Positions 4,789 to 61,254 of a stretch of 64,000 nt of DNA are shown here, in pieces. Source of the stretch: Nageia nagi (Eukaryota; Plantae; Pinophyta); contig JBITNC010000001.1 in the NCBI GenBank assembly GCA_050084985.1, positions 154,566,001 to 154,630,000 of the forward strand. The letters are read 5' to 3'. The notes under the pieces are model-generated. The model searched no databases. It worked only from the letters and a program-made list of their open reading frames with translations, and had not been told where the DNA came from. A program made the translations under genes and the position numbers. Within the stretch, counting starts at the first letter, position 1. The number at the start of each line of letters is the position of its first letter.

Positions 4789-6350
4789 ATGGCCACAGCA
4801 ACAATGGCGAACCAGGCAGATATTGATACACATACTCTGCATGCGGTGGTGGTGCCCTTTCCTGCGCAAGGTCATGTCAAGGCTCTCATCACTTTATCCG
4901 AGCTGCTTCTCACCAGAGGATTCCATTTCATCACCTTTCTCAACACCGAATGGACTCACAAACGCATTTTCGGATCTGAAGAGAATTCTTCCGGACGTGC
5001 CAATTTCCGATTTTTGGCTTTTCCAGACGGTTTGCCCGCTGCCCACAATCGCACCACCAATCTGGGCGAACTATGTGCTGCTTTGCAGCACTGTGGGCCC
5101 TTCAGTTTGGAAATGGTGCTGCGTTCTGCTGTGGAGGATCTCACAATTCCTCCCATAACATGTATCATATCCGACGCTTTCATGTCCTGCACATATTCTG
5201 TGGCTGCAAATATGGGACTGCCAAGGGTTCTCTTCTGGCCTGTGTGCGCCGCCTTCTCCATCTCAGTTAAAAACACTCATTTCCTACTTTCGGAGGGACA
5301 CATTCCAGTGAAAGGTATTATATGACACCTGCTGCATATATTTTGGCACTTTTTTTATATTTTTAATCCTCGTGAACATCATAGGAACTGATTATTATGG
5401 GTTCAGATGCCAAAAATTGTAGGGAGAAAGTGATAAGGAGTCTGCCGGGAAATATACCACCCCTATTTCCCAGCGATTTGAATTCTTTCTGTCGTGAGCA
5501 GCACGCATCCGGACTTGTGTTCAAGAGCTTTCTCTATATATCTGAAATGGTGAATAAAGGGGTTGACTACGTACTTTGCAACACCTTTGAAGAAATTGAA
5601 GGAAAAGAAGCCGCAGAGGCTCTTTCCGTGAACAGGTGTCCAGCCGTAGGTATAGGTCCTGTATTTCTGCCCGGTTTCTTACTAGGAAGAAATGAATCCG
5701 TCAAAAGCAGTATGTGGGAGGAAGATGAGAGGTGTCTGAAATGGCTTGACATGCACCCTGTGGATTCTGTTGTGTATGTTTCGTTTGGCAGTTTAGCTGT
5801 CAAGTCCCAACAGCAGTTGGAAGAAATGGCGTTGGGGCTGGAAGCAAGCGGGCAGCCGTTCCTGTGGGTACTCCGTTCAGATCTGGCTGAAGGGAAATCT
5901 GCTGTTTTGTTGGAGGGTTTTAATGAACGGACTAAGGATCGAGCGTTGTTTGTGAGTTGGGCACCCCAGCTGAAGGTGCTCTCCCACCCTTCTGTGGGAG
6001 GATTTCTGACTCACAATGGATGGAATTCCACACTAGAGAGCATTAGCATGGGAGTACCAATGTTGGGTTGGCCTTATTTTGGCGACCAATCTCTCAATTG
6101 CAGATTTGCTAAAGATGTTTGGAAGGTCGGGATGGATTTGGGTGAGTTGGACGTGGACGATGAGAGATTGGTGAGGAGGGAGGAGGTGGAGAGTGCAGTG
6201 AGGAGATTGATGCAAAGTGAGGAAGGAATGGAAGTGAGAAGAACCGTGTTGAAGGCGAAGGAGGCGGCAGCTAAGGCGGTGATGCCTGGAGGTTCTTCCT
6301 TCCAAAACTTGGACAGATTCATCCGGGATATGTGCCAAAGTACAAACTAA
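4789..6350 (+). CDS. Family-1 UDP-glycosyltransferase (plant secondary-product GT, UGT85/86-like), exons 4789-5314 and 5407-6350, 489 aa
   Basis: N-terminal HAVVVPFPAQGHV (catalytic His) and CIISDAF (catalytic Asp). SVVYVSFGS motif present. Complete 44-aa PSPG box WAPQLKVLSHPSVGGFLTHNGWNSTLESISMGVPMLGWPYFGDQ (5958-6089), then C-terminal GGSS..NL..F. A phase-1 GT-AG intron (5315-5406, AAAG|GTATTA...TTCAG|ATGCC) joins the two ORF-track ORFs in frame. Confidence 0.95.
5315..5406 (+). other. 92-bp intron of the UGT gene
   Basis: GT...AG boundaries, T-rich interior, restores the reading frame (K-D-A). Confidence 0.9.
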
Positions 6351-21300: not shown

Positions 21301-24113
21301 TCCTATCTTATTTATATGCTTTTAAAGCAAATATATAGTATTATATTAATAAAATACTCTTGTTGATTGATATAAGTATGTGTTTTTATTTGTTTCAATC
21401 TTAGAGTGATTGAATTGTTAAAGATGACTTTTCAGTTTGTACATAGAAAATTATGCTCATTAACTCTTTTGCATGAGGAATTAATGTATATCTTGTATTA
21501 GGTTGTAAGATAAACCTTTATTTTAAGTTTAGTATTTTGATATGATAGGAAATGATATGGGTACAAAATTGAAGAAGAGACACTTCATTGATATGAAAAA
21601 ACCCATGTGAAGTTTGTACCTTTATTGGTGGGTTTGGTAATCTATCCTATTGTTGAGAAGACCATTGTATGTGCTTCCTACACTTATTAGTTACATAACC
21701 ATAGACTTGTTAGAAAAACCCCTTTTGCATATCATGCTAGGATTACAATATGTATAACTAGGCCTTACAACCCATTTCAAAAGAACACTAGCTGATGTTG
21801 CAAAGTTTGGATTTACACTTGAAAACTACAACTGCTTAAATGCCCCTATAGCCTTTCCAAAGAATCCATTTTGCACATTAACGAGAAAATTGGTTAAGTC
21901 TGGTTTCATACTAATCTATTGCAACTATGTAGAATCAAATTATGGCCATTTCTAGATGAACAAGGGTAGAGGTTGTAGAGTTTCACTTTACACTAGATAA
22001 TTGCATCTATTTATGTCATTTGATGGCTTATTTTTGGAAGAATGCTAGTAGTGGTCATAAAGTTTGGCTTTATAGTTGATAGTTGCATCAACTTAAGTGT
22101 TGATGTAATCTTTTTATAAAACCCATTTTGTGTGCATCCTATCATATATGTTGGATCTTGCATACATATTTATTTTATCTCATGATGGTTCATTATAAAA
22201 TAATGCTATATCAACATTTCAGTGTATTTGTCATCGAACTCTATGAGAACACATTTTGATTAAACATAGTAGGACTATGCTTCACTAAAAACTCTATCAA
22301 CAAATTCTAGCCTCTTTTAAACATCAATGCTTTCTCCAAAATCTTCGAGCATTAGATAGAAAATTGATGTGGCTTTCTGTTAAGCAATTCATAGGTCTTT
22401 TCAATGCATCATTTATTTATTTATTTTATTTTATTTTTTCTTCCTTTTACATCCAATATTTTAGAAAGAAAACTTTATGTCAAATAAATCATAGGTTTTT
22501 AGACTATCCTTGTGGGCCATATAAACTTAGTAAGGTATTCTAAAAAAAAAATATTCATAGATCCTAAAGGTATAAGGAAGCACCTTATGAATCTTTATTT
22601 TGAATAAATTAGTGAAGTTCAAATTATTCAAATAAAATATGAATTTCTTATTTATAGACATTCAAGTATAAGAGGTGCAAGTATATTGTTTACAAGAATA
22701 AATATATACTTGTGACCCTTTTATAATTTTCATTAAAGGTACTAATGATCTTGTATAAGCCATGGATATGATGTCATAGAATGAGAAAATATCTATATTC
22801 TTTATTTATGTTGAATTTAATAAATAATTAGCATTTATATTTGATCCAAGAATGGTAACCTCTAGAGACCAAGAATAAGCTATTGCTTACCATGATTTGA
22901 CTTAGTTTTATGGGTACTAAGTTTCCCATTGTGTTATGAAAATTAATGAATGATGTTTTTATTTGACCCCATGATAAAGAAAGATAAGTAATTTATCAAT
23001 AAGGCCCTGAACCTATCAAATTTTGAATGGGGTGTTATTTGTGATATTATGACTTGAATTGGAAGATGTAATTGGAAAGTTATTAGACTTCATGGTCAAG
23101 GAAGATAGGTAGCCTCTATCGAGGTATAAATCCTATTGAGATCAAGTTGGAGTATTGTATGATTTAATTGTATGATATGTTGCATTAAGGATAGAATGAG
23201 TTTCATGAATCCAAAGAGCTATTCGAATCCTCATAAACTCTAACTAAATCCTAGTACTCAAAATTACATCACTTTGGTTTCCTTGGATGGAGGCATGTTT
23301 GAGGATGATAATAGATGGATGGAAGCTCATTAAAGATAAGTATGGTGACAAGGAGCAACTTAAAAGTTGAAAATGCTCGAAAAAGGGGTTATTGAAAATT
23401 GTACTATAAAGGCAAACTCTAGTTTGATATACTAAGTATGTAGAATCAATGACTCATGAAAAATATGATGTACTTCTAAAAATGATCACAATATGTGGTT
23501 AGGATCATACTAGAAGTAATGTGATTCTTTTATGGATGAACCATTGAAACACCTTACTTATAAATGTGAAGTCTTAGATGATTTATATGATGTATTCTAT
23601 AAACAATGAAGCTTTTGATAAGTTCTATGCCACATTGCTTTGTCACCTTTTTTTGAAGTAATGATTTTACTTATATTAATAAATTATGATTGAGTGTACC
23701 TTCTTAGTTTCATTATTGAGCTTTCTCAAATTACTTCTTTATTATGTTTGATGAGTTATTAATTTTGGGTTTGATAGACATGGTTACTAATAAAATTTAT
23801 TAGTCTCAACCATCCACTTGGGGTATTGTGAACTTAATACCCATGGCTCCCTAAGTTATGGGCATGGGGATGTCAAATTCCATGGTGGGCCTAGCTGATA
23901 GTTATGGGTAGGCTAGTGTCCCATACCCTCAACAAGATGTTAGATGAGGGTAGAAATCAATAAAAATATGATTACCGAGTGAGGGTAACTCATATTCACA
24001 CTACTTGCAATTAGCATATAGAAGTAGGATGATTTTTCCATAGGCAATGATGTTATCCATTCATATGGATGATTACCTAGTACAATCTATCTATTCCTAT
24101 AAATCAAAGAGTT
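18400..24113. mobile_element. Mixed, highly decayed LTR-retrotransposon sequence (LTR-like segments, gypsy pol traces ~22450-23600)
   Basis: LTR-like composition with TATA CCTATAAATACC at ~21076 and faint RT/integrase-like codon runs; no boundaries resolved. Confidence 0.3.
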
Positions 24114-24118
24114 ATCAT

Positions 24119-24434
24119 TGAGAGAACTATAATGTTCTTTATTACTCATAAAAATGAGTTACATATATAGGCTTTGTGAGCCATTCCAAGACAAGCTAAA
24201 TGGTTGAGATGCATGATTCTCACACCATAACAAATATCACAAATAGCACACCTACGTGAACTACAAGACAATAAGTGATGCCTATCCTAACAAATAGGCT
24301 AAGTATGGAATATGGTCAACATAGACCAAATATTCCTCATAAGCTAATATTAATACTTTAGGAAATACTCTTAGTCCTAATTAATTAATCCTAATAACTT
24401 AGGACTTAGGGATATGTAGGGTATAATTCCAACA
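24119..24434 (-). repeat. 3' LTR of the pol-less element
   Basis: TG...CA, adjacent to the PPT, 307/316 identical to 28394-28709. Confidence 0.97.
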
Positions 24435-24574
24435 TTCTCCCCTTTAATGCTAAGTAACTCATGCAAGAGTTCTTAAGCATCACAAAGTTGAAAGAAACAT
24501 AACCTTTTTTGTTTCCTCCAATCATACAATAAAAAATCAAAATTTTCAAGAAATAAGTGGTGGCACTCCTTCCA

Positions 24575-26241
24575 CTAGTTGTATGGAGTTTTCTTCATTG
24601 TTGTTGATGTTGCTCCTTCATTGAGTGCCTCCTTTTGTTGAGTAGCTCCCCCTTCAACAAAAGTCTCTATGGTCTTCAACAACCATATTCTCTCTTCTTC
24701 ATGGTCCTCAAACCATTCTTGTAGTGACATTCCATCAATACTATAAGTATTGGTTTTCAAGAACCAATCTCTCTCACAATGGTGTTTGAACCATTCTTTC
24801 ATCTCTCTCTCATTTTTTATATGGTGTTTAAACCATGTTTGCAAGTAGTCATTTGCTCTTGCATTCATTACATCATAGCATACTCCACATGAGTATGTTC
24901 TCATCATTTCACAATAATCATTATACCACACTACTCTCTCACAAATGTCTACACACACTTTGAGACAATACATAGCCACACATTGGCTAATTACATATGC
25001 AACTTTGAGTTGCTCCTCACACAAAGTTTCACTCAAAAAATCACACCTCACTAAGATTTTACAATCATCATTTGGATCCACAATTTTACCATCATTTTCT
25101 TCACCAAAGGAATACTCTCCTTCAAGGTTTCTTCCATAAAATCATCTTCATAGCATGTTTCCTCCAAAGTTATTTCAACTTGAGGATTCTTCAACCTATT
25201 TTCACAAAACAAATCATTAGTATAAAATTTTTTTTCACCTCTAATGGTGATTTCCTTTGTGCTTTTTTCTTCTTCACAAAGTACTATCTCACTATTCTTT
25301 CTCTCCTCCTTGAGATATGCTTTGTCAATCACTCTTGGTGAATGATCTTCTTGCATGAACATGGAGTTTATAGCCTCCATTTATTCTTCATTAATGACCT
25401 CTCTAAGATCATCATCCCATATTATCTTCATAAGACAATCATCATGTGTCTCCTCCATGAAGCATTCCTCATCTTCTCCTCTCTTCTCAACAAGAAGAAG
25501 ATTCTCACATACACTCTCCTCCTTGAGAGCTTCTTCTTGGTGATCTTCACATTGGGTGTCTTCACCATCAACTTGAGCAATGGAATCATCATTGCATATG
25601 ATTTGAGCCTTGTCTTCATTCACTCCATGTGAGTGAGTTTCATCTACTCCATGTGAGTAGTTTTCAGCCATGGAACACTCCTTCTCAAGGGTGTCTTCAT
25701 CTTGTTCTTTATCAAAAAATAACTCTTGCCAACATTGGGTTGACTCCTCCTCATTCTCCATCATAAGAATGGGTTCACAATATGCCTCTTCCATGAATCA
25801 TTCATCATCATATGGCTGAAATGGTGTCTTCAATAGACACTCTTCAAATGACTCCTCCATAAGACATGGATCATCACAAGGCCAATCTAATTCCTCTCCA
25901 AGGAATTCTCCTTCATAGTTTTCATCATATGTTTCTTCATAAGATTCTCTCAATGCTTTCCAAGCTATTGCAGCTAATTTACAATTAGCAATGATGGGAA
26001 AAACATTCTCTTTCATGGCTTTTCTCAAGTCCATGAGAGCTAAGCAATTTTGATATTGCTTTTCTTTTTTCTCCTCTCCTTCAAGAGAGCTCCAATTTGG
26101 GGGTTCTTCATAGCCTTCTTCTATAATGCTCCAAAGGTCCTTAGCCTTGAGCAAGGTATTCATTATTATGCTCCACCAAGCATAATTTTGTCCATCAAAC
26201 TTGGGCACCTCCAAGTTTTCATACATGGTGTCCATTTCCAT
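24575..26241 (-). pseudogene. Gag N-terminus + acidic repeat region + Cys/His/Trp-rich domain; ancestral ~555 aa, now 2 stops and 1 frameshift
   Basis: ORFs 25798-26241, 25381-25794 and 25051-25380 are in one frame separated by single stops. A 1-bp frameshift near 25125 links to 24575-25081. The N-terminus VPKFDGQNYAWWSIIMNTLLKAKDLWSIIEEGY...AWKALRESY is the copia Gag N-terminus. Confidence 0.85.
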
Positions 26242-28393
26242 TTGTGCAGATTTAATAAATATTCAGTAGCTTCAAATCTTCATTAATATGGATATCAGGT
26301 TCATGCATAAAAACACTCCCAATCATTCTTTTTAAAGTCTCAACACCAACTCTCTCTTTACCAACAATTTAACATGGACCTCCACATCACATCCATGAAA
26401 TGAGCACACTGTATGTATTTACAAGAGTGGTTGAATCATAACAACGTATTTGAGTAGCAAGGGCAACAGCTACAAATTGTGGACTGCACTGAACTATGTA
26501 GATAGCTTCCATTATTTTTTTCACACACGCATTATGTGGTCTCCTTCAGACTACTTTCTCTCCATGTACAACACTGCTCTACCTTCACCTTCTCCTCATG
26601 CTACTTGAAATGCAATGAATAGTAATAGTATTCCAACAGCGCTGCTCTTCAACAATGTTGGCTCCTTTAACATGCAACATAGCATGTGAACATCACCTTT
26701 GTGCTATCTTCGTGAATGTCTCCTTCACATGAACATCTCCTTCACCTCCATGCGGATCACAATCAGTTTCAGATCACCAAAGATATGGCTTTTCCTTGGT
26801 AGTATTGATTACACTAGTTGCTCCTTCAATCTCAAGTAGATAGATACTTCGGTAGTGGAAGAACAAGTACTGATGATTGATACTAGAATGAAAGGGCATT
26901 CCACTGGAACCAAAACAAGTAGAAGCTCCTTTGAAAAGAAGTGGTCAGGTGCTTTTAATGAAGAATGCTTTTCAATCTTCCATAATTTGCTCTCCTCTCT
27001 GCTCTGTTGGTGTTGTCTCGGTGGCACAATGTGAGATTCCTCTTAGGTAGGACTTATGGCATCCAATCCTCATAGCCTTCTCAGGTTGACTGTAACAACA
27101 ATGATCTTCAAATCGTATGCAACCTTGTGTGTAGCCTCCTTCAGCAACATACTCCTTCTTTGTTAGCTTCTCTATGTAGTTCTAATGTGTATGCACAAGG
27201 TGGGTGGTGGTTCTCTTGACAACAAGACCTCACTTCCACATTGGCATCCTATAGGTCTGTCTCCCTCTACATAGGTTACTGAAACATGGCCACACAAACA
27301 TCACGTGAATCCTCCATGTGATCACTATAGCATGACTTCTGACCACATAATGTTTTCTCCTCCGTGAGCTATAGACCATGAACAGCACATGAACATCCTC
27401 TACAAACCATGAATAGCTTCTCCTCCTCCTTCATGCAGGTCAAAAATGTCTCCTCCACATGAGTAGCAAGTCACCAAATGAAGGTCCTTCACACACTTCT
27501 GCTTCACATGATCTCCTTCATGGTGTAGGCCACTGTTTCTCCTCCATAAGCTTCAGCATGGGCTCCTTTCAATAACAGCTTGTCCAAGCAAACCTTGGCT
27601 TAGTCTCACTCTATCTTTAGTGATCATGGCTCCTTTGGCTCATAGGCCTTCTACAGATGCTCCTCCTTCACCGCTCTACCTTCATGCACATCTCTTCTTG
27701 TGAGCCATCAAATGCAAGCTTCAGACCAAATGCGAGCTTCAGTGCATGTCTCCTCCTCACTGGTATAGATCTGCTTCATTGCTTCACCAAATCTCCCCAT
27801 TGGCAGAGATTACAGTCTAGAAGCTGTGGTACCATCCAGACCTTGGGCATTACGCATGTCCTCAGCACATGCACTATAGGGAGGGATCGGTTCGCATCCC
27901 TTCTCCTCATGCAACTCCATCTATGCTTCCCCACCATCCACATCCTTCACATGCGCAGGTCACCAATCATAGCACATAGGTCTTTGGCAGCTCTCTCCTT
28001 GCAGCAATCAATTCAATGCATAGTCTTTCAGTGCAACACTCCTCACATGGGCCTCATAGCATGCGACTTCAGCTCCTCTTTTCTACTATGCGTGGGTTTC
28101 CTTCAAACCTCCTTTTATATTACGTAGACTCCTTTCTTATCACATCTCAGCTCTGCACATTTCACAGCTGGATTCCTCCTTTTCTCAAGAAAATTAATCA
28201 ACCAGATAATATTCCTCCATGTTGTGTGAGCTTCTCTACAAGATGTGGATCTCACACTTGCAAGAATTTGATAAATTCTTTGCAATGCATCCACAAGCTC
28301 AATAACTCTAATGACAGTCCTTGAGGAGCTTGATAAGATCCTTCAAGACTTCACCCACTCTAACCCAATAATCAACTATGCTCCGAAACCAAT

Positions 28394-28709
28394 TGAGAGA
28401 ACTATAATGTTCTTTATTATTCATAAAAATGAGTTACATATATAGGCTTTGTGAGCCATTACAAGACAAGCTAAATGGTTGAGATGCAATATTCTCACAC
28501 CATAACAAATATCACAAATAACACACCTATGTGAACTACAAGACAATAAGTGATGCCTATCCTAACAAATAGGCTAACTATGGAATATGGTCAACATAGA
28601 CCAAATATTCCTCACAAGCTAATATTAATACTTTAGGAAATACTCTTATTCCTAATTAATTAATCCTAATAACTTAGGACTTAGGGATATGTAGGGTATA
28701 ATTCCAACA
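28394..28709 (-). repeat. 5' LTR of the pol-less element
   Basis: TG...CA, adjacent to the PBS. Confidence 0.97.
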
Positions 28710-30099
28710 ATCATTAGGTGATGATGCTAACTTAGTGGAAGTATGATCTCTAGGGTGTTATGGGCCCCTAGTAGAAAACCACTACACCATTACCAGAAAG
28801 CTTGATGCACATGGGATGTGGAATAGGAATGGTGACATCACCTTTGAGGCATCTTCTCAATGAGGTGAACATTAAGGAGTGAACATCAGATAATTAATCA
28901 GGGTTGGTTATTCTAGACTCTACCAAACTTGCCATATGGGTGCTGGTAGCTGATAGTGTTGACATGCTCATGTGGACCACTTGACTCCATTCCTAGATCA
29001 TTTGAGTGTTTCATTTTAAAAAAAAATGGGTCTAAATTTTTAGGGTCTTATGAAATTTGAGATTAAGCTAAGCATTGAAGAGTTGGAGTGCTATAGAAAG
29101 TTTTTAGGATTTTACATTCTTGAAATTTTTGGGTGGTAGCAATCCCCTTTACTTTATTTTATTGGATTGTCTATGTTATTTGTTATTTCATTTAGAATTC
29201 CATTATTATTTTCTTTGGCTAATTATCATTCTCATTTGTAGGAAAGAACCCTAATGATTAGTGTTAAGATAGTTGCAGAATACTGGCTAACATGCATTAT
29301 ACAAAATCACTCAAAATGGTATTTAAGGAATGTGTGAAATAATTTTTAAAAAAATAAAAAGGAAAAATGTGTATCCAAATATAGATGTTTAAATGATTCA
29401 ATAATTAAACAAAAATAAAATAAATTTTTAACAAGTAAAAAAGTAATCTAAATGGTAATGAAAGATGTAGCAAAAGAGTAGCATTTAATAATAGTTAAGA
29501 ATAATAATGATATAATAACAAATGATGCCCTTGATATTCGAGATTAAATCAACCTATGAAATCCAAGAGATTAAATATGATATTAGAACATAAAGGATAT
29601 TTAAAAGTAGTTTTAAACCCAAATACCTTTACCAATGTTTATCCATATGTCGCCTAAATTAGCATCGCTAAAAATCAATTCTCTATGATGATGGTTAATA
29701 TTCATATGTTTATAGTTCCATAAATTATCATTTAAGGTACTAACTATATGGTTATAAACCATCCCATTAAACTATAAAAAATTGGTTTAGTATTAACACA
29801 TTAGTATTTAAGGGGAAAGTTTAAAATTAAATCTTCATAATTAATATTTGAAAAAATAAGTGTAGTTTAGAAGCATTCTACCATCATGTAAACATGATGT
29901 AATAATGCTTCCAAATTACACCATCCTTGGTTATTTGAGTTTTAACTCTAATATCAATCATAGTGTTTTCCATGGGCTTCCAAACAATATCCCAATGGAA
30001 CTAACAAATCATGGTTCAGTATCTTACCTAACTTATCTTAGTCTAATATTAGTGACACCTAAAGGAACACCTAACCAAAACTTTATAGTGGCCCAATCC

Positions 30100-33000
30100 T
30101 ACTAGAAATGGACCTAAGTTAACTTAACAAATTGACTTGAATTTATAAATATCTTTCTTTATTGGTTAGTTTTGATAAAATGAAGACAAGTTGGTGAATC
30201 ATGGGTGTGTTTGAGGTGAAACATGGACCCACTAATAAAACATTAGCATGTTTTTAAAACCTAATACATTTCAATTTCCATATACGTAATACAAGAATGT
30301 CAAATACCTAAATTTGCAAACTAAAATATAAGTATGTTCATGGATTTTATGATGAAACACTAACATGTTTCATTAGTATTTTATCTTTTGTAATGTAGCC
30401 ATTACATTTTCTTTATTTTGAGCAACTAAAGCTAGGTTTAGGTATGTATTGAGTTCAGACTCTTTCAAGTTAACTCTTTCAGTTTTAGAGTGATTCATCT
30501 TCTCTTGTACCATTGTAAATATGTATTTTTCATTCTTGTTGATTGATTCATACATTTGATCTTATATTATACTACCAAAGTGAATATACAACTCTCTATT
30601 GTTACAAGTGAATATTGCTAATTATGGGTCCATATTATTGATATTTGTTTATTTATTTTACTTATAAAACTCCATTTGGTATCAGAGCTTGTTTATTCTA
30701 GAGAGTTTGAGATATTTTATAGTTCCTATTATAATTTATCAATTTATTTTATAGGACCATTGTATGTTTATACACAAACTTTCTTTTGATTCTAGAATTT
30801 GATGGAGATAACTATGAGTATGAGACCATCAAATGAATACCTTATTGTTGAAAAAGCATCTATGGGATAGTGTTGAGGATGGGTATGTAAAACCCACTAA
30901 CTAAAATACTCTTATGGATCTTGATAAGGTAACAAAGAATTAGGCTTAGTAAAATAATTATTTGGTACTCTGTCATCTTTAATCTTCTTTGGATAAGAGA
31001 ATTTTCCCAAGGATTATTGGTTGTATAATAGAAAAAGAAGCATTGATAGCATCAAAGGATGGTTACCAAGGAAGCAACCAAGTGAAATAAGTAAAATTAA
31101 AAACTCTTATAGGAGAGTTTTAGAAATTTATGATGCAATATAATGAAAGTGTTGGTGATTATTATGTGAGAGTGAAGGTTATTGTAGAAAAGATTAACAT
31201 GTTGTTGTTGTGAAGAATGTGTTGAGAATACTTACATCAAAATGGATCCATATAGTTATTATCATTGAAAAGAGAAAAGATTTGTCTACTCTTAATTTTG
31301 ATCAATTAATTAGCTTTCTTATGTTTCATGAGGAGAGATCAAAATACACTATAATTGGTGGTGTTGAAGAAAAAGCATTCTCTTTAAAGGTGAATGAAGC
31401 AAGCTCTAGTGGATAATGAAGAGGCAATGGTGGAAGAGATAATAATTCCTCTAGAGAAAAAGGTAGAAGTAGAGGTGTTTCTATTGGAAAGGGAAAATTT
31501 TAAGACCCCCACCCTAAAAAAAAATGTTTTAATAGGAGGGTGATTAATCTTAAAATATGTTCGAAAATGAGGCAATCAATTTCAAATCATGTTAAACTTT
31601 TTTAAAAAGAAGGGTGAAATATATATATATAAGGTGAATAATCATTCAAATACTTAAATTATATATTTTATTTTCTTGTATTACCAAATTATAATGTTAA
31701 AATTTAAGTTATATATATATATATATATATATATAGGTATATATATCCTTGCAATAGGAAACAATGTTGGTGATATTTTTAATTTATAATTTTAAGAAAT
31801 ATAATGGGTCAAACCTATTCTAAATGTGGGTATAATTTCCCATAAAAATAAAAAATAAAATCAAGATGAACATGTTAGAAGAAGAATTTGTCTATATATC
31901 CAAATATAAAAAATGAAATCTTAGATGTTATCCATTTGGATATGGGTTAGCCACTAACATTTTCCTTGGTATTAAATGAGGAATAGTTGACAAGAAAAAT
32001 ATGCAATACCATCATTACAACAAGTTTGGACACTTTGAAAGAGACTATAGATTAAAGGATGCAAATGAAGGGAGGACAGTGAATTATGGAGAGAAGAAGA
32101 GATTATTGTAGGAGATAAAAAAACTTTCTTCTCATATAACAAGTTTGATAATATACTTCAAGATATTTGGATACTTTACATTGAACGTTTAAACCAAATG
32201 ACCAATAAGAGGGAGATGCTATCTTCATTAGATCATTCCTATAAATCAACCATTAAGCTTGGGGATGATAAATGCTTAGAGGTATCACTAAAATGGAATA
32301 TAAGATAGATAAAAAGAATGTAAATGATATCTACTATACTCCAAATTTTAAATATAATTTGTTGAGTGTAGGAAAATCATGGAGAAAAACTATTAGTTTT
32401 TAAATATGGGAAGTGTGTATTTTTTTACAATAACCATGAAAATATTATTATTACAATTGTTCCAATGAGTAAAAATAAATTATTTCCATTAAATTTTGGA
32501 AGATAAGGGGTTAGTCTTACAAATGTGACTATTGAGAAAAAAAATTAGCTTTGGCATCTTAGATTTGGGTACTTGAATTTTATAAGTTTGAAGTTGTGAC
32601 ATATTAAGAGATGATATATATATATTGCTAAAGGTAGAGGATCAAAAGACTATTTATTAAATATGAGCTTTAGGAAAGCATTCTAGATAGAATTAATGTT
32701 ATAGTATTTCAAGAAAGCATGTGATTATGATTATGATCCCAATTCAAGTACTACAATTACCTCATCAAGTGATAGTTCTCCAAACAATAGTTTTGTTAAT
32801 GTTATAAATACAAATAGAGTTAAAAAGGCACTTAAAGATCATTCTAATACTCAATTTTTGTACAAAAAATTTCATAGAATATTGATAAGGATCGAAACTC
32901 AAGAATTAGACCAAGTTGTTCAAAGACTTGAGAATATACAAATGTATGGAGATGAAGATGAAGGTGAACTAAAAGGTGATATTGTGAATTATGCATTAAT

Positions 33001-35094
33001 GGTTATTTATAATTTTGAACCTTATTTTTATGAATATTATTGTATTAATAGTATTTATATGCAAGCTATGAAAGAAGAGATAAATTACATTATGAATAAT
33101 GACACTTGGAAACTTATTGAATTGCCCAAGGAAAGAAATATGTGGGTTCCAAGGAGTTATACAAGAAAAGATGTAACAATGATGGAAACATTGAAAGGTA
33201 CAAGGATAGACTTATTGATAAGTTCTTAAATCAAAAATATAAAATTTACTATGAAGATACTTTTGCACTAGTAGCAAGGAAAGAAACAGTGAGCTTGGTT
33301 CTTTCCTTAGCTTCCCAAAAATAGTGGATTGTATATCACATGGATGTTAAAAGTGTATTGTTGAATGACTACTTGAATGAGGAGGTTTATGTATAATAAC
33401 ATCAATGTTTTGAGGTCAAAGGAAAAGAAAAACATTTATACAAGTTGAAGAAGGTCTTGTATGATCTCAAGCAAGCTCCAAGAGCTTGGTACACACAATT
33501 GATAGTTACTTTCAATAGTATGGATTCAAAAGGAGAAAGAGTAAACCAAACTTATATTTCAAGAAAGAATTTTATTATGCAATATATATGGGTAGTAGTT
33601 CCTTTTTGAATGATATTTTCATGATTACAATGATGATTAAGTTTGAGATGAATGATTTAGGTTTGGTGCATTATTTTCCTTGCATGGAGGTCCACCAAAT
33701 CAGGGACCAAATATTCATTTTTCAAACCAAGTATGTAAAATATATGATGAATAAGTTTAAGATGGAAAATTATAAACCTATCCCTAATCATATTGCTCAT
33801 GGAGAGATGTTTTGGATGGATGATGGGATTGAGAAAGTGAATGTGATAGAATATAGAGCCCTTGTTGGGAGTCTTATATTTCTCACAAACACAAGATAGC
33901 ATATTGATTATGACTTCTCTTTGGTATCTAAGTGCATGAGTGTACCATGTTTTTTTACACTTAATAAATGTAAAAATAATATTGAAATTTGTGCGTGGAA
34001 TCATCAATTTTGGCATCCATTATTCTTATTGTGAGAAGTTGGAGTTGATTAGTTTTAGTGATTCTAATTGGGTTAGTAACTTGGATAATAAGAAGTTTAA
34101 TTTTGGTAATTATTTCTCACTTGGATGAGGGTTGATTACTTGGATTTAAAAGAAGAAAGGATTAGTTATGCTCTCTTCCACAAAGGTTGAGTACATTATT
34201 ATTACTTTAGTAGGAGCATAAGCCTTGTGGCTTCATGATTTGTTGGAGTATATTGGTGAGAAGCAAGAAGGACCTACTTTATTTTTTTTTGACAACATGA
34301 GTGTCATTCAATATGCGCAAAATCCTGTCCACCATAGTCAATCTAAATATTTCTATTTGAAGTATCATTTCATTCATGACATGGTGAAAAGAAAAACATT
34401 GAGCTAAAGTATTATATAACTCATGATTAATTGGTATATATATTCAAAACAGAAGTGGATAAATCTCAATTTTTGAAGCTGAGAAACTCACTAGTGATTC
34501 CTCTTAGCATCAAGAGGGAGAATATTGCAAATTGACCTAAGTTTACTTGAATTAAATAACATCTTCCTTGGTTGGTTAGTTATAATAAATCATAGATAGA
34601 CTGATGAACCATAAGTGTATTTGAGGTGAAATATGGATCCATTAGTGAAATATTGGTACATTTCTAGAATATTAATGTGTTTCAATTTCCATGTATGTAA
34701 TATAGGAATGTCAAGTACTTGAGTGTACAAACAAAAACATTAGCACATTCTTGAATATTTTGATGAAATACTGACACATTCCATCAATATTTTATCTTTT
34801 GTAATGTAAGTGTTACATTTTCCTTTGTTTAAGTAACTAAATCTAGGTTTAGGTGTGTATTAAGTTGAGACTCTTCATTTTATCTCTCATGTTAACTCTT
34901 TCACTTCTATAATGATTCATCTTCTTGTGTAGCATTGTAAATATGTGTTTTTTTATTCTTATTGAGTGGCTCACATATTTGATGTAATGTTATGATTCCA
35001 AAGTGAATATAAATATATTTATTATTTTTTGTTCATTGATTTTTGTGGTTCCATACTATTAATATTTATTTATTTATTTTTGTTATAAACTCTA
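30100..35094 (+). mobile_element. Old Ty1/copia element (copia-1) with both LTRs and TSD; integrase core deleted
   Basis: LTRs 30100-30674 and 34523-35094 (diverged but collinear). TSD AATCC (30095-30099 / 35095-35099). PBS TGGTATCAGAGC at 30677-30688; PPT AAGAGGGAGAA at 34512-34522. Remnants of gag, zinc knuckle (~31990), protease (~32160), WHLRFGYLNF (~32550), RT (HMDVKS, LYDLKQAPRAW) and RNase H (DNMSVI..AQNPVHH). Confidence 0.93.
31490..31980. other. ~490-bp AT-rich insertion in copia-1 gag, containing (TA)n tracts and a small hairpin
   Basis: Interrupts gag between the GRG-rich segment and the zinc knuckle (contiguous in copia-2). (TA)n at 31711-31735; inverted repeat ttttaaga..caccct / agggtg..tcttaaaa at ~31497-31557. 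Confidence 0.55.
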
Positions 35095-36784: not shown

Positions 36785-37480
36785 TATCATGTATGATGCA
36801 ACATAGTTTTATGGGCTACAATAATTAGAGGAAGTGCATAATGATATAGTACATAGTTTTAAGTAAAAAGGAAATCATGTTTCATTTTATTTTTTTAAAG
36901 TGTTATTAATAATTATTTATACAAATTGATAATTTTTTTTATGGATATAACAATGATGCCCTTAAACTTTTGATTTGATGAAGCACTTGGGAACCAACCC
37001 TAATAGAATAACCTTTGTATATGTTCTACATGCATTTCTAGTGGATGAGAGATAAAAATACTTTAATACCATGAGTGAATATTATAACATGAATTATTAT
37101 ACATCCATTTATAACCTCTTTCTTCATATAGGATATCTTGATGAAGCTTTGAAGTTCATTATCAAGATACCCGCAAAACCTAATTTGGATGTGTGGATGT
37201 GTCTTGTTGGTGCTTATAAATCATATAACAATGTAATAGGGGAATTTATGAAAACAATAATTTTATTAATGGAGCCTAAATATGCTTCATATTATTTTCT
37301 TCTTCCAAATATTTATGCTAAAGTGGGAAATTGGGATGATGTTCAAAGAGTAAGGACATTGATGATAGGAGGAATCAAGAAGATATGATTAGAGGATATA
37401 CAACATAATATGCATGATGAAAATATATTTTCATGAAATGAAATGATTGGAGGGTATGCAATTCATGAATTTACAAATAA
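36785..37480 (+). pseudogene. PLS-class PPR pseudogene, C-terminal motifs and E domain
   Basis: ORF 37071-37388: GYLDEALKFIIKIPAKPNLDVWMCLVGAYKSYNN...EPKYASYYFLLPNIYAKVGNWDDVQRVRTLM..GIKK (E domain). 36955-37070 is paralogous to 13955-14080. Confidence 0.85.
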
Positions 37481-39309: not shown

Positions 39310-42300
39310 TCAGTTTGGCAATTTAGAACAATTAAGGGTGAATTATCAAGTCATTTTTTACACTTTTCAGCTACTTTCTTCATCATTTTCCTTATATTTC
39401 TTTTATTTAAGCTTTAATATATATAAATAAATAATTTGAACTTATTATTGGGTTAATTTATGGTGTAAATTGGTGTAACTCATAGATTACACCTAGAATT
39501 GTAATGTAAATCATTTAAAGAAATGTCATAGTAAATTTTTCCATAATAAATCTTCATATTTATCCCAATTTTGTTTTGTATAATGTATTTATGTTTGTAT
39601 GGTGAATGTAAATGCATTTCACATTATAAGTTTATAGTAATAAAATTCATTTGGTATCAAAGCTAGAAGATCAAGGATTGATTTTTTTGTTGGGTTTGAA
39701 AACTATGGGTGTTGTGCAAAAGTTTAGAAAGAGTTTTTGCAAATCCAAGTTCTATTGAAGATTTAATATAATGGAAAGAAACTCAATTTAAATACCAATC
39801 CCTAAATTATATGGTATTGATTATGAATATTGGAGCATCATGATGATGAATCTCTTAGAAGGAAAAGATTTATGGGAGATTGTAGAGGATGACTACAAAG
39901 AGCTAGATGATTGGAGTGTTCTGAGTGAAGACAATAAGAGGGATACTAAGGAGAAGAATAAGAAGAAATTCTTTTCTTGGTATCATATCTAGGATATTCT
40001 TGATAAGAGCATATTCCCATGAATCTCTATCCACAAAAATGCTTTTGATGCATGGAAAGCTTGGAAACAAGGCTACCAAGGAAGTGTTAAAGTGAAGGAG
40101 TTCAAGCTTCATATCTTGAAAAGAGATTTTGAGAATCCCAAACAACATGAAAATTAGTGTGTGGGTGATTATTGTGTAAGGATTAAGGCCATAGTGAATA
40201 AAATGGCCACCCTTGGTGATAATATGGGTAAAGCTTTGGTTGTTAAGAAAGTCTTAATGACTTTACTATCAAAATGGGATAATGTGACTCTTATTATTGA
40301 AGAGACCAAATATATTTACACCATGGAGTTTGATCAATTACTTGACTCTCTTAAATCTTATGAAGAGAGGTTTTTGAGAAGATCCAACATTGGTGCAAGT
40401 CAAGATCAAGCATTCTCATCTAGGGAGAATGAAAGTTGTAATGGAAGAGGTCAAGGTAGAGGCCAGAATGGAAGAAGAGGAAGAAGATGCTCTTCTAAAA
40501 GAGGAATAGGGAGAGATCATATTCTTGATGGTTACCAAGCCAATAGTGCAAGTACAAGCACCAATGCAAGAAAAGGATCTAGTTCTATAGGTAGAGGAAG
40601 AGACAAGAAGAATGTGCAATGTTATCATTATAACAAGTATGGCCATTATGAAAGAGAGTGTAGACTCAAACAAGCATCTCAAAATAGTAGTAGATCAGCA
40701 AATTATGGAGAAGAAGAATCCTATGAAGTAGATTACTTATTTATTTCTATTTTCCAAGAGAAGAATTATGGTGGCAAAGCACTTCTTTCACAAGAAAAAC
40801 TAGAAGATTTCATCATTTATGAAACTTGGGTTCTTGATAGTTGTTGTTCCAACCACATGACCAGAAAGAAGGAGCTTTTTTCATCTCTTTATCATTACTA
40901 TAGTTCCAATATCAAACTTAGGTATGATAAAATATTGGAGGTGATTGCAAAGGGGTAAATGGCAATTCCTACCAAAAGAGGTACTATGAAGGTAAAAAGT
41001 ATCTATTTTGTTCCTAATTTGAAACATTCTCTCTTAAGTGTTGGGAAAATGCTTTAAAATAATTGTAAGTTGGTTTTTGAAGATAAAATATGCTAAATAT
41101 ATGATAAGAACAAAGGTGGAAGGTTGGTTACTATAGTAGAAATGAATAAAAATAAATGTTTTCTCATCAAGTTTGTTGACCAAGGGGGAGGCTTTGCTTG
41201 TGTGAGCATTGATGATAATGCAACTTTATGGCATCTAATATTTGTTCATGTGAATTTTAAAAGTTTATAGCTTTTATCTCCACTTGTGTTTAGTTTTCCA
41301 AAGGTCTAAGATACTATAAAAATTTGTGAAGGGTGTGCTCTTGGAAAGCATGTGAAGGGGTCATTTCCAAATAATGAAGCATGGAGGGTCCAATCTCTTC
41401 TACAACTGGTTCATAGTGATCTTTGTGGACAAATGCAAACACAAAGTATGGCTAAAGCTTCTTATTTTCTTATCTTTATTGATGATTTTTCCAAATATTA
41501 TTAGGTGTATTTTATTAAACATAAAGATGATGCATTTGAGTGCCTCAAGGCTTTTAAAGCTAGTGTCGAGAATCAAAGTGGGAATAATATTAAGTGTTTA
41601 AGGATCGATCATGGTGGTGAGTTTTTCTCTAATTATTTCTTGAATTTTTGAAGAGATTATAGCATTAAGAGGTAATTAACATCACCATATAGACCCCAAC
41701 AAAATGGGGTATTTGAAAGAAAGAACTAGACTTTGATAGAGATGGAAAGATGTATGATGCACATAAAAGGTTTGAGCAATTTTTATTGGATTGAAGCTAT
41801 AAGGATTATTATTTATATTTTAAATAGGATTAATTCAAGGAATTTGGATGATATTACTCCATATGAATGTTATCTTGGAAAGAAGCCAAGTGTGAAACAT
41901 TTTAATATAATTTTTCACAAAATTTTGGTGTCCATAGATGCTATTTTTGATGAAGGGGGAGTTGGAAGTCTCAAAAATTATGATTGTATGTTTGAATAAG
42001 TTTCCTAAAATGATCAAGGAAGTGTTCAACCCATCCATATTTCACATAATCAAGTTCAGCCTATATTTGATTCCTCATAAAAAATGGGATCTTCTAGTGC
42101 ACCATCAAGTCCACCATATGGTTCTTCTTCACCTCCATCACCAAGTGAGTGTGTAAATCAATCAATGAAAGTTAAAATATTGTTGAAAGATCATCCATAT
42201 TCCCAAATGTTAGATCCAAAATTCTCTTGAAAGTTGATAAGGAGTCAACATAAGGAACTTGATACTACATTGCAAAGGCTTAAAAACTTGCAAATGTTGG

Positions 42301-44425
42301 GAGATGAAGATAACAAAGAGTGTAAAGGTGATATGGTAAATTATGAACTTATTTCTACTACTTCTAATGCACATATTTCTAAATATTCTAAAGTTACTAA
42401 ACTTGATGATTTTCAGCCTTTTTGTTCTAAACAAGATTGTTCTAACAAAGTGTGGATGAAGGATATAAATGAGGAGTATATTCCATTATCAAGCATGACA
42501 TGTGAGAGTTATGTGATCTTCCCAAAAAAATAAAATATGTTGGATGTAAATGGATCTACAAGATCAAGGATAATAGTGATGGTTCCATTGAAAGGTATAA
42601 AGCATAGTTGGTAGCAAAAGGGTTCACACAAAAGCATGACATAGAATATGAGGAGAATTTTGCTCCTATTACAAGGCAAGAGATCATTCAAATGGTGCTT
42701 TCATTGGCTTCCCACAAGAATTGGAATGTGCATCACATGGATGTGAAAAGTTCATTCCTCAATGGCTATCTTGATGAAGAGGTATATGTGGGACAACCTC
42801 AAGGTTTTGAGGTTCAATGAAAATAGGATTAGGTATATGGATTGAAGAAGAATTTATATGATATGAAGCAAGATCCAAGAGCTTAGTACACATGAATCAA
42901 TTACTAATTTCTTAAATGTAGCTTTTAAAGAAGTAAGAGTGAGCACACTTTGTATTACATGAAACAAGGTATTGATATTCTACTTGTTTACTTGTATGTT
43001 GTTTATAGGAAGTAGCTCTTCATTATGTGATTCTTTTAAGGATGAGATAAAATATTAATTTGATATGATTTATCTTGGTTTTATTAGTTACTTTTTATGC
43101 ATATAAGTACATCAAACACATGATGAAATATTTCTTTGCCATGCCAAATATGCTAGAAAGATGTTGAAGAAGTTGGGCATGAGTGAATGCAAACTTGTAG
43201 CTATGCCAACTACCCATGGAGAGCTTTTGTGTTTAGATGATAGGGATGAAAAAGTATATAAAATAGAGTATTTATGGATTCTAATGATCATTTATAATAC
43301 AACGTCTAATATATGTTATGTAGTATCTCTTTATTCTATGTACATGGTTGATCCTTCTTGCTTACACTTGAAAGAAGCCAAGAGAATACTAAGGTATGTA
43401 TGTGGTACAAAACATTATGGTATTCATTACTTCTCTATTGATAATTTGAATCTTGTTGATTTTAGTGAAAATGATTGGGGGAGTAATTTTGATGATTAGA
43501 AGTTCACTAGTTGCAACTACTTCTCACTTAGTACTGAGATGATTACCTAGAATTCAAAGAAGCAATATACAATTTTTTTATCTTTTAATAAGGCTAGTGC
43601 ACAAGCCTTATGTATTAGGAAAGTTATTAATGATATTGGTGAGAAACAAGAATATTTTACTAAATTTTTTTATGATAACCAAAGTGCCATTAATTTAGCA
43701 CAAAAACTAATCCACCATGTATGCTCTAAATATTTTGATATCAAGTATCATATTATCAGAGACATGGTGGAGAAGAATTTGATCAAATGAAAGTAGTGCA
43801 ATACTAAGGACCAAGTTGTTGACATATTCATAAAATAATTTTATAGATCACAATTTTTGATATTGAAAGACTAATTGTTATCCCTCTCACCATCAAGGGG
43901 GAGTATGTTAAAAGCTTACTTCATCAAACTTCATAATTTGAGCTCAAAAATGGAAAATATAACCTTTCTAATGAAATGAATCCCCTAGGGTATTTCCTAC
44001 AAAAAAACCACCACATTTTTGAAATGCACTTGCATTTTCTAAAACATGCTAACCCAGTGCATTTTCCCTGAAACACAATTGTGTTTTAGTATGGTAGTTA
44101 AGAATAGTTAAGGGTGAATTATCAAGTCATTTTTTACCCTTTTGAATTGCTTTATTCATTTTTTTCCTTCTATTTTTTTCAATTAAGATTTGATATGTAT
44201 AAATAAATAATATGAACTTTTTCTTGGGTTGGATTATGGTGTAGATTAGTGTAACTCATAGATTGTACCTAGACTTATAATGCAAATAGTTTGATAAAAT
44301 GTCATAGTAAATTTTTCATTAATAAATCTTTAGATATTTCCCAATTTTATTTCATATAATGTATTGATGTTTGTATGGTGAATGTTAATGCATTGTATAA
44401 TATAAGTTTATGTTAATAGACTTCA
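39310..44425 (+). mobile_element. Old Ty1/copia element (copia-2), complete gag-PR-INT-RT-RH order, degenerate
   Basis: 5' LTR remnant ~39310-39649; PBS TGGTATCAAAGC at 39652-39663. Gag (LWEIVE; ORF 40161-40958 with VQCYHYNKYGHYERECR and WVLDSCCSNHMT). Integrase (LQLVHSDLCG, PQQNG..ERKN), RT (HHMDVKSSFLNG), RNase H. PPT AAGGGGGAG at 43895-43903; 3' LTR 43906-44425. No TSD found. Confidence 0.92.
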
Positions 44426-46522
44426 TCTTGGGCTTAAAACAAATTTTGGTAAGGATGATATCTCTCCCATAAAAAAGGTACAATGAAATCTATTTTGTAT
44501 AAAAAATCCCATAAGGAACTATCTTTAGCATTTTTATCTTCAAAGGATTTTACTTTCAATTATACATGATTTTCAAGTAAATTTGTTGCAAATACATTTC
44601 CATTTCTATCATGTATTGTGCTTTGAGGTGTCAAGGACTTACCCATTTTGATGGAAACTATGGATATGAGTTGGAAAATTAGATTTGAAGGTAGGAATGT
44701 TAAAAGCTATGAAAAACCTAAGCTTTTAATCACTTGAAAATGCAAAGGTAAAATGAATAAGGTGCAAACTTGAAAATGGGGTTAAAAATGAATTAAAGAT
44801 TCCTAACTACCCTAATTAATGCAAATATGCACCTTAAAAACCATGCATGTAAAACTTTAAAATTACATATGTACATATAATACAACTTATGCAATTAACA
44901 CATGATGTAAAACTTTCAATGCTGGTCATTTATTGTGATCAAAAGGCTCTAACCATATACTCCCTCTAATTTGAATGTGTTGTTCTAGATTTCTTAAACA
45001 ATGAGGTAAGGTATAAACCATAGAGAATCAAACTTTTAGTGATTCCTAAGCTTGGTACAATCTTTATCTCATTTAAGAACTAGATCACCAAGCTTGAAAG
45101 AAACAATAGATGCATACCTTTTATCAAACCATTTCTTCACTACATTATTTCTCTTTTGAATTTCTTTGTATGAATTCTTTTGGAGTTCATATAAATAGAT
45201 AAGAATAAATGTCCTTACCTATAATGAATTTGCATCATTCATCTCATATAAGTTAAGAAATTGTAATGCTGGTAACTTGATGTGAGATGATAATGTAGCT
45301 ATTTTTTCATAAACTATAACATAAGAAGAATTTTTGATGGACTATTTATAAGTGATTCAGTTCACCCATAATGCAAAGTCAAGATTCTTGTCCCAATCTC
45401 TATCATTTTCATCTAGTTTCCTCTTCAAGATTCTTAATAGATTCTTATTGGTTGACTCAACTAATCCATTACCTTGAGGGTAATAATTGGAAGAGGTTTT
45501 CTAGTAAATACCATACTTAAGATAAAACTTTAAAACTCTAGCTCCCAAAAATGTTGGATTGTTATGTTGTATAATAATTTGTGGGATACCAAATCTTATA
45601 ATAATTCTCTCCATAAATGAGATGATTATATCTTGATCTTGGTATTTAGTAGCAGAGGCTTCCATATATCTTGTAAAATAGTATGTAGCTATCAAGATGA
45701 ATCTATTTGTAGATGAAGATCCTAGGTTGATCATGCTAATAAAATTAAGGCCCCATTACTAGAATGAATCTTCTACTATAATAGGTTGCAATGGAAAGGA
45801 ATCCATTCTTCTCCTTCCCACAAATCTATCATATTTATTATACTCTTTAGCAATTTGAAATAAATTTATATACAAGGAAGGCCAATAAAAACCTTCTTAT
45901 AAAACCTTTGTAGCAGTGGTATATCCTAAATAGTGTCCTTTATAAAATATAGAATAAAATTCCTTTAGAACTTAAATAAATTTCTCTAATAAATATATCT
46001 CAATAGCATCCCATCATGGTTTCTTATGTACAATACATGGTCCATATTGTAATAATTGAGAGCATTTAATTTGAACCTTCTTCTTTGTCAAGCATTGAGT
46101 CCAAATGATAGTCTAGCATTATAAAAATATATACAAAGTTGTGTTATCCAATATTTTGGTTCTTCTGGAACTTCCATAAGTTCTCCATCATCATATTCCA
46201 CTTCAATAATCATGATATGTTCAAAACTCTAATACTTAGCCAATTGTTTGTAAATATCTCTCCCTTAACTACCTTAGTAGGATAAATTTCAACATCATAC
46301 TTTAAAATCTTTGTATTCCATCTAGCTCCACTAGAATCCATCTCACCTTGTAGGATGTAACTTCTAACATCAGGATGAATGATAAGCACTATAATTTTAT
46401 TATGAGAGATGTAATTCTTAAACTTATTAAGGGCTTTAATTATAATGAACACCTATTTTTTAATGAATCCATACCTTTCCTTATCATCATGTAGATTTTG
46501 GATAAATAATGCTATATGATTT

Positions 46523-49500: not shown

Positions 49501-51055
49501 ACAAAAATGATTTAAAGCCTTCTTTTTGCATAGGAATCTAGATGAATAATGTGCACCCTAGGTCCCTTGTAAAGTAAAATTAAGAATAATATCATCAAAT
49601 GCCTCATACACTAGGCTAAAAAAAAGTAAAATTAAAAATTAAAAAAGAAAACCCTAAAAAATTGAAAATGTGTCAAAGGCAAAATGAAACAAGTTTTTCA
49701 CTTATTAATTTGACTAGGGTCAAGCATTCAAAAAAACTAAAACCTATGGATAATTCTAAATTCAAAAAATGACCCTTCTTTTGACAAACAAAAGATAGAC
49801 ATGGTTCGATATGACTAAAAACATGTATTGTATGAACTTTTACGTAAGATCATTATGTAACCTAATAAGAGTATTCATAGGGAAACTTCTTTATCACATG
49901 CTAGCTTTGGCATATGTAAACAAGGTAAGCATCATCACATACCTACCATAAATAATACACAATATAGTGATACTAAAAAGTTCCACTTTGATAATACAAC
50001 CATACTACTTTCAAAATATGTTAAATGCAAAAGATCAAAAGATGAATTTAATTATAATTCAATCAATCAAATTTATATTATTCATAAATAATAGGTTTAA
50101 TCTAAAATAGTGGCTAAAGTTAAAAACACATGTGAAGAAACTTGAATGCATCCACCTTCAGAAAGGTAAATTTTTGAATTATCCTTTGCTTACAAACTAG
50201 TAGATAATTCAAAAAGGGGCAAAATATAAAAACCCAAAAATGAACCTTATTTTGACAGATGAAGGAAGATAAAAAATTAGAAAAAAATTAAAATATTTAC
50301 TATGTTATGCCAATTGCCAATTTCCAACTTCAATTATTGGTGACTCAAGCCAAACATTGGCATTCAATAGCTAGATGCTAGTGAATTTGTAATTGGAAAA
50401 AGCAAAATAAAAATAACAACTCTTGAAGAATCTTGGGAAGAAATCAAAGGATAACGAATGACTTATCATCCATCCCATGTATCCCAACTTTGGATCATAG
50501 CCATGACAAAGTTGGATAGGCTTTTTTTATCCTAAGTTTTATCTCAAAATTGAAAACTTTATTTATTTTTGAAACCTATAAATAAAGTCTTCTACAATGA
50601 AGTAAGGGACTCGATTTGAATACAAAGTTACTCTATCGAAACAAATCTAGGGTTACTTAGTTAAGTGAATTAATGTTTTAAGTACTTACATGATTTTTTT
50701 AAGTTCAATTTTATGCTTATTTCATGATATGAACATGTATGTTTGATGTTTTTTTTGTTTGCATATGTATAGGCTCCATAGGTGTAGAGAAAAAAATTGA
50801 ATAGAGAACATTATAAATATTTAAAGAGAACAAAGAGATCCATATTTCTTTCAAGTTTCAAAAGATGATTTTTGAGGCTTATAGACACTAAAAATAGGCT
50901 TACAATGGCCAAAATATTATTTTATTTGCAAGGCAATGAATTGAAATAGATTCATAATTTGTATCATTGAGGTTTACTCAAGAGTAATAAAGAAAAATGT
51001 TGGTCATGACATATCTTTTCTTATTTGCAAACAAGGTTACTTTTTTAGTATGATA
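46523..51055 (+). mobile_element. Nested Ty3/gypsy (Tat-like) element, internally deleted: LTR-aRH tail-INT-3'UTR-PPT-LTR
   Basis: LTRs 46523-47263 and 50225-51055. TSD GATTT (46518-46522 / 51056-51060). PPT AAAAAGGGGCAAAA ending at 50224. Integrase remnants AHDGIC*GHF, MGYYWPTM, WALDLIG, YFTKWVEAIP, FTPNWVGPY (47600-48680). Confidence 0.9.
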
Positions 51056-61185: not shown

Positions 61186-61254
61186 GGAATATGAATACAT
61201 GATGTTAGGGATCTCTAAAGTGTATATTTCCTTGTATTTCTAATTTTTTGTAAT

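Follow-up and report, generated by a model that had tools for sequence, protein, structure and literature searches.

Can a retroelement that encodes no enzyme of retrotransposition, and only part of a capsid protein, be a transposing unit in its own right? The question is raised by a long terminal repeat (LTR) retroelement at 24119–28709 (minus strand; 4,591 bp) of a 64,000-nt stretch of the Nageia nagi genome (GenBank assembly GCA_050084985.1, contig JBITNC010000001.1, positions 154,566,001–154,630,000), hereafter the window, in which an N-terminal half of Gag is joined to a long unfamiliar tail and pol is absent. We find that the element belongs to a multi-copy pol-less family, and that this layout is a family trait and not a one-off deletion. 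Tentatively, at a probability of roughly 45%, we read it as a decayed copy of a copia-derived family whose putative protein docks a half-capsid on helper Gag, favouring the family's own RNA. The evidence is strong for the anatomy and the maintenance of the frame, moderate for a function of the half-Gag and weak for a specific role of the tail.

Anatomy of the element and its reading frame

The two LTRs, 316 bp each, start with TG and end with CA, differ at nine positions (four transitions and five transversions; Kimura two-parameter distance 0.029) and are flanked on either side by the 5-bp target site duplication (TSD) ATCAT. The primer binding site (PBS) is Met-i-like, with two mismatches to a motif that we take to be typical of copia elements, and the polypurine tract (PPT) has the same form in the sister loci L001 and L002 and in a neighbouring copia element at 43.9 kb. 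Alignment and motif checks thus bear out the description in the original prediction, which a model had made from the sequence alone, including its view that this is the most recent datable insertion in the window: LTR identity is 96.9%, against 83.0, 82.8 and 74.7% for the three other pairs, making it the youngest of the four. At the slower substitution rates that we assume for conifers, the insertion would be 6.6–21 Myr old. The rate of PMC4350172 (1.3e-8 per site per year) gives 1.1 Myr. The element is nested in another high-copy repeat (23787–24118 and 28710–29020), whose empty-site form is represented by contigs joining 24118 to 28746 and 23872 to 28723.

Pfam identifies DUF4219 and Retrotran_gag_2 (PF14223, UBN2 type, E 1.5e-8), the latter over profile positions 1–76 of 172 only, and Gag similarity ends near residue 104; the sisters start Gag at the second methionine (26235). 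Nothing in the element beyond the half-Gag rises above the Pfam cut-off. The C-terminal Gag part (profile positions 101–168), which a neighbour's downstream Gag open reading frame (ORF) has, is missing, and none of the six frames of the element contains a CCHC zinc knuckle such as that of the neighbouring copia at 39–44 kb. Neither Pfam nor tblastx with the neighbours' pol found protease, integrase, reverse transcriptase (RT) or RNase H in the element; the single tblastx match to the two neighbouring copia pol regions, at E 0.45, is not real. The prediction had placed the end of Gag at about residue 101, before the C-terminal capsid part and the knuckle, and had seen no protease, integrase or RT, and it was right in both. 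By Pfam position and length, the kept part is probably the capsid N-terminal domain (NTD); in the Drosophila Copia capsid, the NTD comprises residues 1–90 and forms the capsomer spokes, with the C-terminal domain (CTD) at 91–186 (PMC11835246).

Behind the half-Gag, ~480 non-Gag residues follow in frame. The prediction had reassembled four ORF pieces into one ORF of ~555 aa with only two stops and a 1-bp frameshift. The four pieces and the ~555-aa length hold, but the frame continues past the stop at 24575–24577, which is not common to the sisters, to 24473–24475, giving ~590 codons. There are three private-looking stops, and relative to L001 more than one base is missing at the frame break near 25082; in all, the window copy is broken at four places. 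Its final stop aligns with that of L001, and L002, P0004 and P0018 read on into the 3' LTR. The stop at 25381–25383 is also not common to the sister contigs, and the unbroken sister protein P0003 reads through all three, the comparison at 25798–25800, which has no row in the sister read tables, being with P0003 only. From the LTR divergence, ~25 changes would be expected in the ORF since insertion, enough for three stops, and the stops and frame break of the window copy most likely arose at or after insertion.

Summed depth is 0–36 over the leader (26400–27900) but runs from hundreds into the thousands over the ORF and LTRs, and contigs either skip the leader or carry something else in its place; the transposing unit therefore appears to be the pol-less Gag–tail layout with a variable leader. 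The suggestion that the whole structure had been retrotransposed stands as far as this layout, common to relatives, is concerned, but the 2.1-kb leader is atypical of most members. Two leader pieces, 26272–26312 and 26401–26508, recur in long contigs that show no other relation to the element and come from probable RNA runs of two organisms; a third organism has a DNA contig that matches the first piece as well. The pieces are possibly captured host transcript fragments.

A multi-copy family without pol

With the C-terminal piece of the ORF (P0002) as query, one of 124 candidates was P0003, a 641-aa unbroken sister protein whose half-Gag, junction, acidic middle and C-terminal part are laid out as in the window copy. 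Among 1.84 billion representative proteins there were 11 matches, ten of them family-like at 37–76% identity; P0011 (Clostridia, 28%), which probably matches by chance, was discarded, and P0013 (43 aa) was excluded from alignments. Among further protein searches, one returned the query alone out of 2,484 candidates and another confirmed six of 3,817. Metagenome scanning confirmed none of 98 pattern matches with P0002 and two of 17 with alignment A2, the loci L001 and L002; the viral contigs scanned contained no family member. In L002, the half-Gag, the acidic part and the helix fit into the ~2.2 kb that separate the Gag start from the PPT, and there is no pol; L001 has a 247-codon open tail followed by the 3' LTR. 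Sister loci and subfamilies share 67–86% DNA identity.

All four DNA runs, from four organisms, yielded matching contigs (2,643, 2,309, 1,229 and 20), most at 80–95% identity. Single contigs with zero or one difference to the C-terminal region reached a depth of 285–718 against 2–8 for many others, contig depth not being copy number: it is the count of variants that indicates many copies, in the DNA runs of three of the organisms. Single-copy status, which the prediction had named as grounds for its own rejection, is excluded by these thousands of variant contigs, and sisters with pol, its second such ground, are absent among P0003, L002 and the contigs of the runs X14 and X15.

Four probable RNA runs (X12, X14, X15 and X19, a status guessed by the tool and recorded for none of them, with contigs that give neither strand nor level) held only 11–51 contigs each. 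One X14 contig of 3,631 nt comprises the 5' LTR, a different leader (~1,360 nt), Gag, tail and 3' LTR, both LTRs partial, and leaves no room for pol; midway along the tail, 417 nt are of different sequence. A 2,827-nt contig from X15, which belongs to another study, carries the same differences. The long contigs keep the tail, which gives no support to an intron or splice product as its source.

Frame preservation and the tail protein

The tail frame contains three stops in 1,455 nt, against 16–46 in the other frames, and in Markov simulations (2 x 3,000) the best frame always had at least 18. Between the window copy, L001 and L002, new stops in the C-terminal tail fell below the null in all three pairs (P 0.051, 0.005 and 0.002), and residue changes in two of the three. 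Net indels there, taken from a frame-blind alignment, were multiples of three in 9 of 10 cases (L001–L002), 5 of 6 (window–L002) and 2 of 4 (window–L001), the remaining two of the last pair summing to a multiple of three; for the LTRs the figures were 2 of 7 and 0 of 2. A hand tally of two read tables, excluding joints whose insert length is not given and unlisted rows (5 indels, 14 joints), placed 7 of 8 indels in frame inside the ORF against 0 of 8 outside (Fisher P 0.0014). Neutral evolution of the non-Gag part, the third ground named in the prediction, is contradicted by this frame preservation between subfamilies as regards the C-terminal part, though at the residue level the constraint is weak, as set out below.

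The half-Gag, compared between the window copy and L002, has a ratio of nonsynonymous to synonymous differences (pN/pS) of 0.38, with none of 500 position-blind shuffles equally low; a frame-blind alignment gave 0.40, against 1.14 and 1.17 in the other frames, and the residue changes are conservative. These values show purifying selection on the half-Gag between the two subfamilies. Both subfamilies already lack the rest of Gag, so that the constraint would postdate the truncation unless recombination with a helper refreshed the half-Gag.

AlphaFold models of natural sisters have low overall confidence (pTM 0.30). They show a helical half-Gag (pLDDT 60–80, residues 11–100), disorder over residues 104–281 and one confident helix of 41–45 residues (pLDDT ~90). 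This helix is Cys-rich and hydrophobic, with cysteines four apart and conserved charged residues; its 19-residue hydropathy maximum is 1.3–2.3 across 11 members and exceeds 1.6 in nine of them (window copy 1.53, P0003 1.34). The pattern persists at 25–45% identity, and the motif is kept in relatives down to 25–29%, a conservation that is partly selected for, the relatives having been found by similarity. The tail is thus predicted to be a disordered acidic linker and one conserved Cys-rich hydrophobic helix, with no known fold. Three distant relatives (P0009, P0016 and P0019; 23–32% identity) keep the helix behind a different upstream sequence, P0009 and P0016 also the C-terminal motif.

Database comparisons agree with the earlier view that the non-Gag remainder is unrelated to normal Gag. 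Across 21 family pieces, Gag families alone among Pfam entries matched more than one member; PDB sequence searches with the family protein gave nothing below E 0.03, the ESM atlas no usable match (best 0.82) and Rfam 0 matches, and no host-protein match for the tail was found. Fold searches of the 641-aa model returned generic helices only and none at E <= 0.001, from a shallow alignment that leaves a capsid fold still possible. Set against the NTDs of Copia, Ty3 and Arc, the half-Gag model, likewise from a shallow alignment, gave generic helical matches only (best Z 6.3, rmsd 5.5, 77 aligned).

Table 1. Features of the element and its flanks, in window coordinates.
Feature	Position	Strand
TSD ATCAT, left copy	24114..24118	
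3' LTR, 316 bp	24119..24434	-
Polypurine tract	24435..24445	-
C-terminal part of ORF: Cys-rich hydrophobic helix, short WFxxH repeats, conserved F.EGG and P..W KEC..F..F.FLL motifs	24473..25081	-
Further PPT-like purine run that encodes the conserved EGG motif	24646..24655	-
Conserved ~45-residue helix, sole confidently predicted tail element	24884..25018	-
Frame break of the window copy: multi-base gap vs sister L001	25075..25090	-
Acidic linker, 29% D+E; disorder predicted (in sister); variable length, in-frame internal duplications	25083..25929	-
Stops inside the acidic linker	25798-25800, 25381-25383	-
Copia Gag N-terminal half: DUF4219 and Retrotran_gag_2 positions 1-76 of 172	25930..26241	-
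Non-coding leader, 2.1 kb, 71 ATGs; mostly missing or replaced in sisters	26242..28379	-
Met-i-like primer binding site	28380..28391	-
5' LTR, 316 bp	28394..28709	-
TSD ATCAT, right copy	28710..28714	

Elsewhere in the window lie an intact-looking two-exon UDP-glycosyltransferase gene (4793–6350), decayed PPR gene relics (11.4–14.2 kb and 36.8–37.5 kb, with an E motif match at 37059–37385), two old decayed copia elements (30129–35089 and 39312–44431, with PBS at 30677 and 39652, of which the former retains an RT remnant and the latter a knuckle), a further LTR pair (~80–83% identical) around a short interior (46525–51055) and a 70-bp tandem array (61245–61594). The UDP-glycosyltransferase and PPR E-motif matches mark the host as a land plant.

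Known relatives and competing explanations

The element resembles TR-GAG elements (Chaparro et al. 2015, PMC4350172; Arabidopsis AT5TE33540, PMC8704663) in its LTRs, PBS, PPT and 5-bp TSD, in one ORF with UBN2/Retrotran_gag_2 similarity (a single frame in P0003), and in the absence of pol, the many copies, the apparent transcription and a helper that is not identified; as the TR-GAG filter asks, its Gag matches a hidden Markov model (HMM) at E < 1e-5 and there are at least two copies. TR-GAG1, however, encodes a 433-aa Gag with a zinc knuckle, whereas here Gag ends at profile position 76 of 172, with neither the C-terminal capsid part nor a knuckle, and instead of the Gag precursor that a TR-GAG ORF codes for, ~480 unrelated residues follow the half-Gag. 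The length limit of TR-GAG is <4 kb, against 4,591 bp for the element and 3,631 nt for the X14 sister contig with its partial LTRs; the HMM route of that paper spans 1–6 kb. In the literature searched, mostly open-access, we found no description of a half-Gag with such a tail; supplements such as S8 of PMC4350172 and the sugar-beet tables may hold similar truncations. We regard the family as an apparently undescribed TR-GAG-like variant, which passes the operational filters but lacks the Gag-precursor feature. LARDs are non-coding elements, and classification as a LARD was rejected on that account.

Plant Ty1/copia elements with a DUF4219 and UBN2 Gag, represented in the window by the decayed elements at 30.1–35.1 and 39.3–44.4 kb, share with the element a Gag N-terminus of 32–37% identity, a Met-i-type PBS and the PPT form; they differ in their C-terminal Gag part, pol and knuckle (39–44 kb element) and in LTRs that do not align with its own. 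The copia-type Gag and PBS point to a Ty1/copia origin. The analogy with Ty1 p22 drawn in the prediction is apt in part: p22/p18 and the yeast DRT2 factors are also truncated Gags of the Ty1/copia group, but they hold the capsid CTD (for p22/p18, PMC8458377), where the element holds the N-terminal half. Their source is either an internal transcript or one domesticated locus, and they lack a long foreign tail. Additional or env-like ORFs of Athila and Tekay (PMC11728184) resemble the tail in that their products are for the most part disordered, contain a single helix that is long or hydrophobic, and are conserved among members of a family, but they are separate ORFs in elements with pol, whereas this tail is fused to a half-Gag and pol is absent.

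Under the docking interpretation, RNA would be transcribed from LTR to LTR, as the contigs of the probable RNA runs suggest, and translated into the half-Gag/tail fusion. To judge from PBS, PPT and Gag type, an autonomous copia from the same lineage would provide RT, integrase and full capsid in trans; the decayed copia elements of the window are too distant to be this helper. The fusion protein may dock co-translationally at helper assembly sites, its acidic part acting as a flexible spacer and its helix as a membrane or oligomer anchor. We think it unlikely that the satellite lineage went as far as reusing the capsid NTD as a docking module on a membrane-anchored or lipidated adaptor, which recruits helper copia particles to its own RNA and has been kept across deeply diverged subfamilies. 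As originally proposed, this is a satellite family with a half-Gag fused to another protein; a cargo or regulatory domain is a doubtful description of a tail that is predicted to be mostly disordered apart from one confident helix, has a pooled pN/pS of 0.71 and carries a deletion in an expressed sister.

Several observations weigh against docking, which is plausible but putative. The NTD assignment rests on Pfam position and length, the structure model having matched no capsid domain. No close helper was found, the full copia Gags of the window being just 32–37% identical, and the family protein, acidic and without a zinc knuckle, has no evident means of binding RNA. The low pN/pS of the half-Gag could come from recombination with intact helpers, and the frame of L002 is broken in places. 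For the tail, the pairwise pN/pS values are 0.62, 0.68 and 0.71 by the first method and 0.62, 0.82 and 0.81 by frame-blind alignment, from comparisons that share sequences and are not independent, and post-insertion decay shifts such values towards 1. The pooled value is 0.71, with a 95% interval of 0.50–1.06 from three sequences, and LTR control frames are as low (0.62–0.68), so that residue-level constraint on the tail appears weak and is not established from three sequences. With stops set aside, residue changes in the tail are clearly fewer in one of three pairs only, and in the poorly alignable acidic part just 2 of 8 and 1 of 3 net indels are in frame. Finally, the expressed sister contig lacks 2 nt at 24802, within the final fifth of the frame and downstream of the helix, which counts against a need for the extreme C-terminus.

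Stops are strongly avoided and indels stay in frame while residues are weakly constrained, a combination that would also be expected if selection acted on the openness of the frame and little on the tail protein: translation from the Gag start up to the 3' LTR would keep the 3' untranslated region (UTR) short and shield the genomic RNA from nonsense-mediated decay (NMD) and silencing. In the window copy, L001, L002, P0003, P0004 and P0018 the frame reaches the PPT or passes it before ending, and the last residues differ; the tail is free to vary in its length and middle; and copia Gag RNAs with long, stop-rich 3' UTRs have been argued to be NMD targets (Oberlin et al., PMC5580714, a proposal untried there). 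Such RNA protection is a serious rival, though less probable than docking. It leaves unexplained the half-Gag pN/pS of ~0.4 and the helix and C-terminal motifs kept at 25–45% identity, and two probable RNA runs still show abundant copies of the sister whose frame is shifted in its last fifth. The purifying selection seen in the half-Gag would also suit a lattice poison, in which the N-terminal half joins helper capsomers without a C-terminal dimer domain and so curbs replication of the helper, much as p22 curbs Ty1. Restriction by truncated Gags is known for Ty1 and Ty1' (PMC8458377; PMC10951436), and a lattice would probably be broken by a bulky acidic tail where the CTD should be. Yet the known restriction factors are the CTD and not the N-terminal half, the family is not a single domesticated locus, and a many-copy, helper-dependent family gains little by blocking its helper, all of which makes this improbable.

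The helix invites another interpretation, that the tail is env-like or a captured host membrane protein whose helix, as a transmembrane or lipidated anchor, tethers Gag to membranes. Its hydropathy in most members, the spacing of its cysteines and the occurrence of extra ORFs with a transmembrane helix in plant elements (PMC11728184) would suit such an anchor, but the lower maxima of the window copy and P0003, the charged residues conserved within the helix and the lack of any Pfam, PDB, atlas or host-protein match render it quite improbable. That the element is simply a copia whose interior was deleted after insertion, with purine-rich filler open by chance, is a very remote prospect and already largely refuted. 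LTR elements often decay by deletion, and the window copy is indeed broken at four places; P0003, L002 and one contig from each of the probable RNA runs X14 and X15 nevertheless have the same layout, the frame has three stops where chance gives at least 18, and no pol remnant is present.

Two questions are open: what preserves Gag in TR-GAG elements that have no pol, and by what route non-autonomous LTR elements enter helper particles (PMC4350172, PMC8704663). A family that lacks capsid-building ability and the usual RNA-binding knuckle, and keeps a half-Gag under purifying selection with a long open frame, allows a distinction between an element that provides Gag and one that docks on it or shields its RNA through translation; with so many copies in nature, some open and some broken, these options can be tested without engineering.

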